DNA of 64,000 nucleotides from Escherichia phage NHEP11. Below, one piece after another: positions 54,235 to 55,335 of the stretch. The stretch lies in the sequence record PQ511149.1. The stretch is one strand, 5' to 3'. Position numbers and translations under genes: made by a program. Each line of letters opens with the position of its first letter. The stretch's first letter is position 1. Below the pieces are notes generated by a model, which saw only the letters and a list, made by a program, of their open reading frames with translations, had not been told where the DNA came from and searched no databases.

Positions 54235-55335
54235 TTACGCTGTGAAGATTTTATCCCACATCGCAACAACTGCATCTCGGTTATACTTCTTCCATACTGC
54301 TTCAGCACGTTTAACTCGAGCTTCGTATGTGTCAGTGAATTCTAATACAGCTTTTGTGTAAAGCGCAACTACTTCTTTCTTAGGAGTAGAGGAATCAATT
54401 TCTACACGCACAGTATCTGGGTCGTATTCGAATGTCGCATGAGGATAATCCTTAAAAACTAACTGGATTACAGGGACACCTTTAGAGATGGCTTCAATAG
54501 AACTATTCTCTACCGTACCTGTGTCAGGACACGTATTAATAAGTGCTTTAGCTGTTTTAAGACGTTCCATGATTTCACCGTGTGGAGCATCAATAATAAC
54601 AGGATATTTAGCCGGTGGTGCCCATTTACTAGGACAGTATCCTACACCATTTTCGCCTAGTGCTTTAATCGCTTCAAGAGCAACATCAGTACGACGCATT
54701 TTAGTGTCATAACGTTGTGCACTAATAATCAGATCAGTCGCCGGAAGAACTTCAGGTTTCTCATTCAAACAAATAACCGGATAATCTTCGGCTTCAAACA
54801 ACGGATTTGCTCGCCAATAATCATAATCAATTTTGTCAGTCAGACCTGAAGTCATATAACAATATTTGCGTTCAAATTCACGGAAGGCTTTAGTAGGAGC
54901 ATAACTCTTACCACCATTCTTATGAATTTGAATAGTCTGGTCCCAAATTTGAACAATGCCACGAGATACCGGTTCAAATGGTGTTGCCATAAAATTCTTA
55001 TGAACTTTAGAGAGACCTGCGTCTTTAATTGCCTGAACGGTTAGTTTAGTCGGTTCCATAGTAACAACAAAATCGTATTCATGGATGCCGGCTAGTTCAA
55101 CAATCTTACGAGCCATAGTATAACTCATACCTAGACTGAATTTAGTCAGATGACCAACAGGATGGTGTGTAACTTTCCAGTCACCAAACGTGTCATTATC
55201 AAAGCCGATATAATCAATATCAGCACCGATGGACACAAGATATTTCAACACATTTAAATGTACTGCTTCAAGACCACCTTGTACACGGTCAGGATTAAAT
55301 GGGACTGCGCGAGATGGGATAAACATAACTTTCAT
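54235..55335 (-). CDS. GT-B fold glycosyltransferase-like protein (candidate DNA hydroxymethylcytosine sugar transferase or other glycosyltransferase)
   Basis: 366 aa; N-terminal MKVMFIPS...GGLE...V.LNVLKYL and C-terminal GTVENSSIEAISKGVPVI resemble GT-B (GT1/GT4-like) donor-binding motifs; sits between gene 39 and rIIA.1. Confidence 0.55.
   Translation of the reverse strand: MKVMFIPSRAVPFNPDRVQGGLEAVHLNVLKYLVSIGADIDYIGFDNDTFGDWKVTHHPVGHLTKFSLGMSYTMARKIVELAGIHEYDFVVTMEPTKLTVQAIKDAGLSKVHKNFMATPFEPVSRGIVQIWDQTIQIHKNGGKSYAPTKAFREFERKYCYMTSGLTDKIDYDYWRANPLFEAEDYPVICLNEKPEVLPATDLIISAQRYDTKMRRTDVALEAIKALGENGVGYCPSKWAPPAKYPVIIDAPHGEIMERLKTAKALINTCPDTGTVENSSIEAISKGVPVIQLVFKDYPHATFEYDPDTVRVEIDSSTPKKEVVALYTKAVLEFTDTYEARVKRAEAVWKKYNRDAVVAMWDKIFTA

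Follow-up and report, generated by a model that had tools for sequence, protein, structure and literature searches.

What reaction is catalyzed by the product of the 366-amino-acid (aa) open reading frame (ORF) that lies between gene 39 and rIIA.1 in Escherichia phage NHEP11? A 64,000-nucleotide (nt) stretch of this phage (PQ511149.1), referred to as the window, was analyzed. A preliminary description, made from the letters of the window, had read the ORF as a GT-B glycosyltransferase and had offered three substrates: hydroxymethylcytosine in DNA, a different sugar, or a non-DNA acceptor. The gene was identified as the orthologue of RB69 ORF003c (gp3), and its product is most probably the Mosigvirus accessory DNA arabinofuranosyltransferase that adds a second arabinose.

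54235-55335, minus strand: coding sequence for a 366-aa GT-B (GT4-like) protein, orthologous to RB69 ORF003c/gp3 and the HY126 glycosyltransferase; putative DNA beta-arabinofuranosyltransferase adding the second arabinose

Arabinosylated 5-hydroxycytosine (5hoC) is a hypermodification of phage DNA, clarified recently, that blunts both restriction enzymes and CRISPR (clustered regularly interspaced short palindromic repeats)-Cas, and the defences that a phage evades or sets off appear to change with the number of sugars. In RB69-like therapeutic coliphages, the second sugar is probably determined by this gene. Recognizing it is useful for annotation and for predicting defence sensitivity, as many records still label it 'hypothetical' or 'alpha-glucosyltransferase'.

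Identity and distribution of the transferase gene

The ORF starts with ATG and holds both strings quoted in the preliminary description, MKVMFIPS...GGLEAV..LNVLKYL near the N-terminus and GTVENSSIEAISKGVPVI near the C-terminus. RB69p003 (RB69ORF003c, NP_861693.1) is of equal length and identical at 362/366 residues; the four substitutions (T56N, V230A, G253S, and T327I in RB69) include nothing functionally notable. When PDB sequences were searched with the ORF using phmmer, the sole match was 9iqz/9ir0, with 99% identity along the entire protein. Foldseek labels these entries, released in July 2025, 'phage HY126 glycosyltransferase' (apo) and 'with UDP' (uridine diphosphate). The HY126 protein likewise differs at four residues (Y159H, G163A, G253S, and S315F in HY126), and binding of UDP by this 99% identical protein is given by the title of PDB entry 9ir0. 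Residues E281 and R208 and the G20-G21 loop are predicted to contact UDP. PHROG 8302 ('unknown function') covers residues 1-366 of 366 (E 4e-222).

By megablast, the locus was found in 163 phage records at at least 90% nucleotide identity, essentially all of them Mosigvirus, with HX01 as the top match (99.1%). A wider 24-kilobase (kb) stretch also assigned the window to Mosigvirus. The protein family is small: it forms five clusters at 90% identity, and at 50% identity it comprises 11 clusters in a set of 1.84 billion representatives. The ORF is a genuine gene: it is conserved across phages, matches PHROG 8302 over its full length, and has a near-identical product that was crystallized. The gene is also an already known one, that of the RB69-type transferase, of which the gene, fold, structure, and proposed role were all published before. 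The novelty implied by the preliminary description is lost with this orthology, which had been named there as the finding that would make the gene expected.

Database names for the gene conflict (examples are NC_018855 (HX01), OR062945, MN709128, and PQ034586). Names in use are 'hypothetical protein', 'DNA alpha-glucosyltransferase', 'GDP-mannose-dependent alpha-(1-2)-phosphatidylinositol mannosyltransferase', and 'putative hmC-arabinosyltransferase', and none of them reflects the current chemistry.

Fold and glycosyltransferase class

An AlphaFold model was built from an alignment of 10 family members and reached a predicted local distance difference test (pLDDT) of 90.3 and a predicted template modelling (pTM) score of 0.87. 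An earlier model from a 6-sequence alignment had a pLDDT of 58 and was improved by adding five distant members from the representative search. The final model matched 9iqz with a template modelling (TM) score of 0.97, and its other structural neighbours were GT-B enzymes throughout. It consists of two Rossmann-like beta/alpha/beta domains with a cleft between them. As judged from the model, the protein is a GT-B glycosyltransferase, as had been supposed; the structure search, which was to refute this if it placed the protein outside the glycosyltransferases, placed it among GT-B enzymes.

Assignment within GT-B was less direct. The family profile run against PDB sequences found 9iqz alone and no further solved glycosyltransferase. 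Neither Glycos_transf_1 nor Glyco_transf_4 matched the ORF above threshold, and the canonical EX7E motif of GT4 was not found in it; the corresponding site reads E276-x4-E281, with the first Glu out of register. Distant family members gave GT4-conflict or Glycos_transf_1 matches, all sub-threshold. With GT4-type GT-B enzymes (SPS 6kih, BshA, PimA, WaaG, PglA, and MshA) the protein shares the fold but just 10-15% identity.

Using hhalign with single sequences, T4 alpha- and beta-glucosyltransferase were each aligned to the family profile with a probability of 0.3%, and blastp gave no match either. The dissimilarity to T4 beta-glucosyltransferase remarked on earlier was thereby upheld and extends to the alpha enzyme. 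Both T4 enzymes (alpha, GT72, 1y6f; beta, GT63) are unlike the NHEP11 transferase in sequence and genome position. They use glucose, 5-hydroxymethylcytosine (hmC), and a base acceptor, whereas the NHEP11 enzyme would use arabinofuranose (Araf), 5hoC, and probably a sugar acceptor.

Arabinose chemistry and published assignments

In RB69 DNA, mono- and di-arabinosylated 5hoC take the place of all cytosines (Lee et al. 2026, PMC13326640). The di-sugar is beta-D-Araf-(1->3)-alpha-D-Araf, carried on 5-hydroxy-deoxycytidine through an ether link at C5 (PMC13326640). The nucleotide 5-hydroxydeoxycytidine monophosphate (5hodCMP) is made by a flavin-dependent homologue of thymidylate synthase (PMC13326640). 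In Mosigvirus phage NP, mono- and di-arabinosyl cytidines occur at 1:4 (PMC13390438). The RB69-type base is 5hoC bearing D-arabinofuranose, not hmC (PMC13326640; PMC13390438), and the hydroxymethylcytosine premise of the preliminary description falls. Among its three substrate options, a different sugar specificity came closest and modification of DNA was the right context; hmC as the base is wrong, and the base as acceptor is probably so.

The same data bear on whether the ORF might be a divergent T-even hmC glucosyltransferase, an analogue of alpha-gt, beta-gt, or beta-alpha-gt working on hmC and UDP-glucose. This is scarcely credible. Homology to T4 alpha-gt and beta-gt was undetectable, published liquid chromatography-mass spectrometry and nuclear magnetic resonance of RB69 and NP identify Mosigvirus DNA as carrying arabinosylated 5hoC rather than glucosyl-hmC, and 5hodCMP is the product of the thymidylate-synthase homologue. 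The search for other hmC-glucosyltransferase genes that had been recommended was run within the 64-kb window, where homologues of T4 alpha-gt, beta-gt, and gp42 were absent, as were those of RB69 gp46, gp47, gp48, and gp55.

In RB69, gp46:47 is assigned as the first transferase, and gp3 was modelled and assigned in 2026 as 'beta-arabinosyltransferase 2' (PMC13326640); its proposed acceptor is the first arabinose and not the base (PMC13326640). When gp76 and gp77 of Acinetobacter phage DLP3 are combined in vitro with UDP-Araf, RB69 DNA gains a third arabinose (PMC13326640). Bas46 and Bas47 are doubly arabinosylated; LC53 and Thanatos are reported to carry a single arabinose. According to a citing paper, Bas46 with an Aat arabinosyltransferase deleted is sensitized to a plasmid-borne defence.

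Paralogues, copy number, and pathway genes

The NHEP11 transferase was found to be 43% identical to DLP3 gp77 and 40% to gp76, in both cases over the full length. These proteins belong to the same narrow family and use UDP-Araf to modify DNA that already carries arabinosylated 5hoC. No similarity was found between the transferase and DLP3 gp79, the first transferase of that phage. In DLP3, gp76 and gp77 lie in tandem inside the modification cluster, by the kinase, gp79, hydroxylase, and UDP-arabinose genes. DLP3 has two tandem copies within its cluster and a third sugar, whereas the single Mosigvirus copy has been relocated to the rIIA/39 junction and goes with two sugars.

These observations are to be set against the reading in which the ORF glycosylates a non-DNA acceptor (a host lipid, lipopolysaccharide (LPS), or protein) and is tied to DNA modification by coincidence alone. 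The top structural neighbours, PimA, WaaG, PglA, BshA, and a tetrahydrobiopterin glucosyltransferase, do use lipids, LPS, or small molecules, and in Mosigvirus about 21 kb separate the gene from the arabinosylation cluster. With paralogues that act on DNA from within such a cluster, a non-DNA acceptor is very improbable, if a little less so than hmC glucosylation.

The family was searched with tblastn against 50,697 phage records. It was present in 211 of them, at one place each in Mosigvirus and at two each in Acinetobacter phages, and no match to it was found in Serratia or Shewanella records. The first transferase occurred in 348 records (Escherichia, Acinetobacter, Klebsiella, Serratia, Yersinia, Proteus, and others), in each case next to the thymidylate-synthase homologue. 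Zero, one, and two copies of the family parallel mono-, di-, and tri-arabinosylation, where the mono-sugar reports concern LC53 and Thanatos and the zero-copy class consists of the Serratia and Shewanella records, among which those two genomes are perhaps not included. The parallel between copy number and sugar number fits a chain-extending role.

It also bears on the proposal made in 2018, that the ORF is the first, base-proximal arabinosyltransferase acting directly on the modified cytosine. Thomas et al. (2018, PMC6024577) reported arabinose in RB69 DNA and named ORF003c 'the' arabinosyltransferase from matches to GT-B enzymes by hidden Markov model searches and HHpred, and one BASEL phage record still carries the annotation 'putative hmC-arabinosyltransferase'. 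A separate transferase of the RB69 gp46:47 / DLP3 gp79 type, however, is encoded next to the 5hodCMP synthase in all lineages that arabinosylate their DNA, and a gp46:47-type gene occurs in Serratia phage records that have no homologue of the NHEP11 ORF. Moreover, paralogues of the ORF lengthen in vitro an arabinose chain that is already present, and phages with two copies bear three sugars. A base-proximal role is accordingly unlikely, although it is the least improbable of the three other substrates considered here.

In RB69, the arabinosylation cluster is located 21-27 kb beyond ORF003c, and the equivalent position in NHEP11 is outside the 64-kb window. Near-identical relatives, among them NHEP36 and GADS24, encode both transferases.

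Proposed pathway and its weak points

Addition of the second arabinose is the role preferred here. In short, UDP-D-Araf, the most likely donor, would be made by enzymes that the phage encodes at other places in its genome, and replication would incorporate 5-hydroxydeoxycytidine triphosphate (5hodCTP). A gp46:47-type transferase would then link alpha-D-Araf to the 5-hydroxyl of cytosine. After replication, the two-domain GT-B enzyme of NHEP11 would bind the UDP-sugar and add beta-D-Araf to O3 of the first alpha-D-Araf on duplex DNA. The product would be the di-arabinosylated cytosine characteristic of these phages, of which the bulk helps to shield the DNA from DNA-targeting nucleases. We infer both the addition of the second arabinose by the NHEP11 protein itself and the stereochemistry of that step.

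Several points weigh against this assignment, in addition to the doubtful overlap of genomes in the copy-number comparison. No Pfam or NCBIfam model matched the ORF. Lee et al. give the role of gp3 as 'proposed' and do not mark it as experimentally confirmed (PMC13326640). DLP3 gp76 and gp77 are each inactive singly, the pair being needed (PMC13326640); since the DLP3 paralogues work only when paired and Mosigvirus has one copy, a logic of one enzyme for one sugar may be incomplete. The remaining pathway genes lie outside the window, so that their presence in NHEP11 is deduced from relatives such as NHEP36. Finally, the nearest structural neighbours of the model are retaining GT4 enzymes, and the linkage assigned to the NHEP11 transferase is beta, beside an alpha-linked first sugar.

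This last point has a wider consequence. CAZy family GT4 is defined by retaining stereochemistry. The nearest structural relatives of both Mosigvirus transferases are retaining GT4 enzymes; if the alpha-linked first and the beta-linked second sugar come from one UDP-Araf donor, as is supposed, one of the two transferases must invert. The anomer of the commercial UDP-Araf donor used in the DLP3 assay is not stated (PMC13326640). It is conceivable, though on balance doubtful, that the NHEP11 enzyme is inverting on a GT4-like scaffold or depends on a partner, as DLP3 gp76 and gp77 do. If so, it would define a mechanistically unusual, sequence-orphan glycosyltransferase family that recognizes a sugar presented by double-stranded DNA.

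The junction between gene 39 and rIIA.1

Two neighbouring genes frame the transferase gene.

55378-57195, minus strand: gene 39, unsplit topoisomerase II large subunit, 605 aa (PHROG 543), upstream of the transferase gene
53942-54142, minus strand: rIIA.1 (Pfam T4_RIIA1, E 3.7e-30), downstream of the transferase gene and followed by rIIA

The contiguous gene 39 upstream and rIIA.1 downstream were thus both located where they had been placed earlier. The gene 39 protein matches PHROG 543 end to end, with the ATPase, transducer, and Toprim/C-terminal parts in one ORF. The Toprim/C-terminal part that T4 puts in gene 60 is therefore inside gene 39 in NHEP11, which is without the gene 60 split or translational bypass; RB69 is annotated alike. 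The T4 record bears out the comparison drawn earlier, holding gene 60 (with bypass), 60.1, and mobA at this junction. The order rIIA.1-transferase-39 is common to NHEP11 and RB69, as expected of Mosigvirus, and in RB69 the placement, the flanking hairpin, and the spacer are the same or nearly the same.

In Escherichia phage AV118 (OR352948), an insert sits between gene 39 and the transferase gene. The region at 1487-2285, corresponding approximately to window positions 55336-55377, holds an annotated homing endonuclease of 116 aa and a 143-aa ORF. The latter was considered as a gene-60-like fragment of gp39 and was ruled out, not being derived from gp39. The homing endonuclease insert points to the gene 39 junction as a hotspot for insertion of mobile elements in Mosigvirus, as in T4 (mobA / gene 60).

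Hairpin and leader upstream of the transferase gene

Two elements were located between the end of gene 39 and the transferase start codon.

55350-55379, minus strand: hairpin with C(UUCG)G tetraloop and U-rich tail (stem 55373-55379 / 55362-55368, loop 55369-55372, tail 55350-55361)
55343-55346, minus strand: Shine-Dalgarno-like AAGG, 7 nt 5' of the transferase ATG, read from sequence and unchanged in RB69 and AV118

The hairpin sequence is AAGCUCC-UUCG-GGAGCUU (55362-55379), a 7-nt inverted repeat with 100% complementarity, followed by CAUUUUAAUUUU. It overlaps the stop codon of gene 39 (55378-55380) and is the sole terminator-like site in 53800-55700. Taken alone it is not beyond chance, with one terminator-like site against 1.0 +/- 1.0 in shuffled sequences and a fold z of -0.87. 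The UUCG terminator of the preliminary description is thus present as a hairpin with a U-rich tail, without being statistically exceptional by itself.

The hairpin is unchanged in RB69 and AV118. The identity between window positions 55336-55380 and AV118 takes in the hairpin, the U-rich tail, the ribosome-binding site, and the last four sense codons plus stop of the preceding ORF. Because the preceding gene in AV118 is a different, inserted ORF and the leader is still identical, the leader seems to move along with the transferase gene. The hairpin is a putative terminator-like or mRNA-stabilizing element in the 5' leader of that gene.

Inverted repeat before rIIA.1

The 92-nt spacer from the transferase stop codon to rIIA.1 holds a further structure.

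54163-54223, minus strand: inverted repeat / long hairpin (arms 54163-54178 and 54208-54223)

The arms of 16 nt are 88% complementary and 29 nt apart, and their 11-nt perfect core is the 11-base-pair (bp) inverted repeat reported earlier, which is real. The spacer RNA folds with -28.6 kcal/mol (z -4.05), and 0/200 shuffled sequences were equally stable. The repeat is conserved. Two adjacent substitutions in AV118 (CT to TC) mend both mismatches, giving a perfect 16-bp stem, and the one change in the RB69 spacer disrupts the stem. The repeat is possibly a structure for mRNA processing or stability. As a hidden promoter it was rejected: no sigma-70-like site was found on the coding strand at the repeat, and neither a MotA box nor a late-promoter motif was seen there by eye.

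Between its transferase gene and rIIA.1, Shigella phage JK45 (MK962757) has one ORF more, of 136 aa, in the region 343-2239 that corresponds to window positions 54143-55335. This ORF results from a tandem duplication comprising the last 130 transferase codons and an exact second copy of the 92-nt spacer with its inverted repeat, and could be either a real event or an assembly artefact.

Near the locus, three further ORFs gave no Pfam match, all on the minus strand: 57259-57684 (141 aa), 57869-58297 (142 aa), and 49950-50570 (206 aa). The first of these occupies the position of T4 39.1, and its RB69 counterpart is RB69p005 ('hypothetical').
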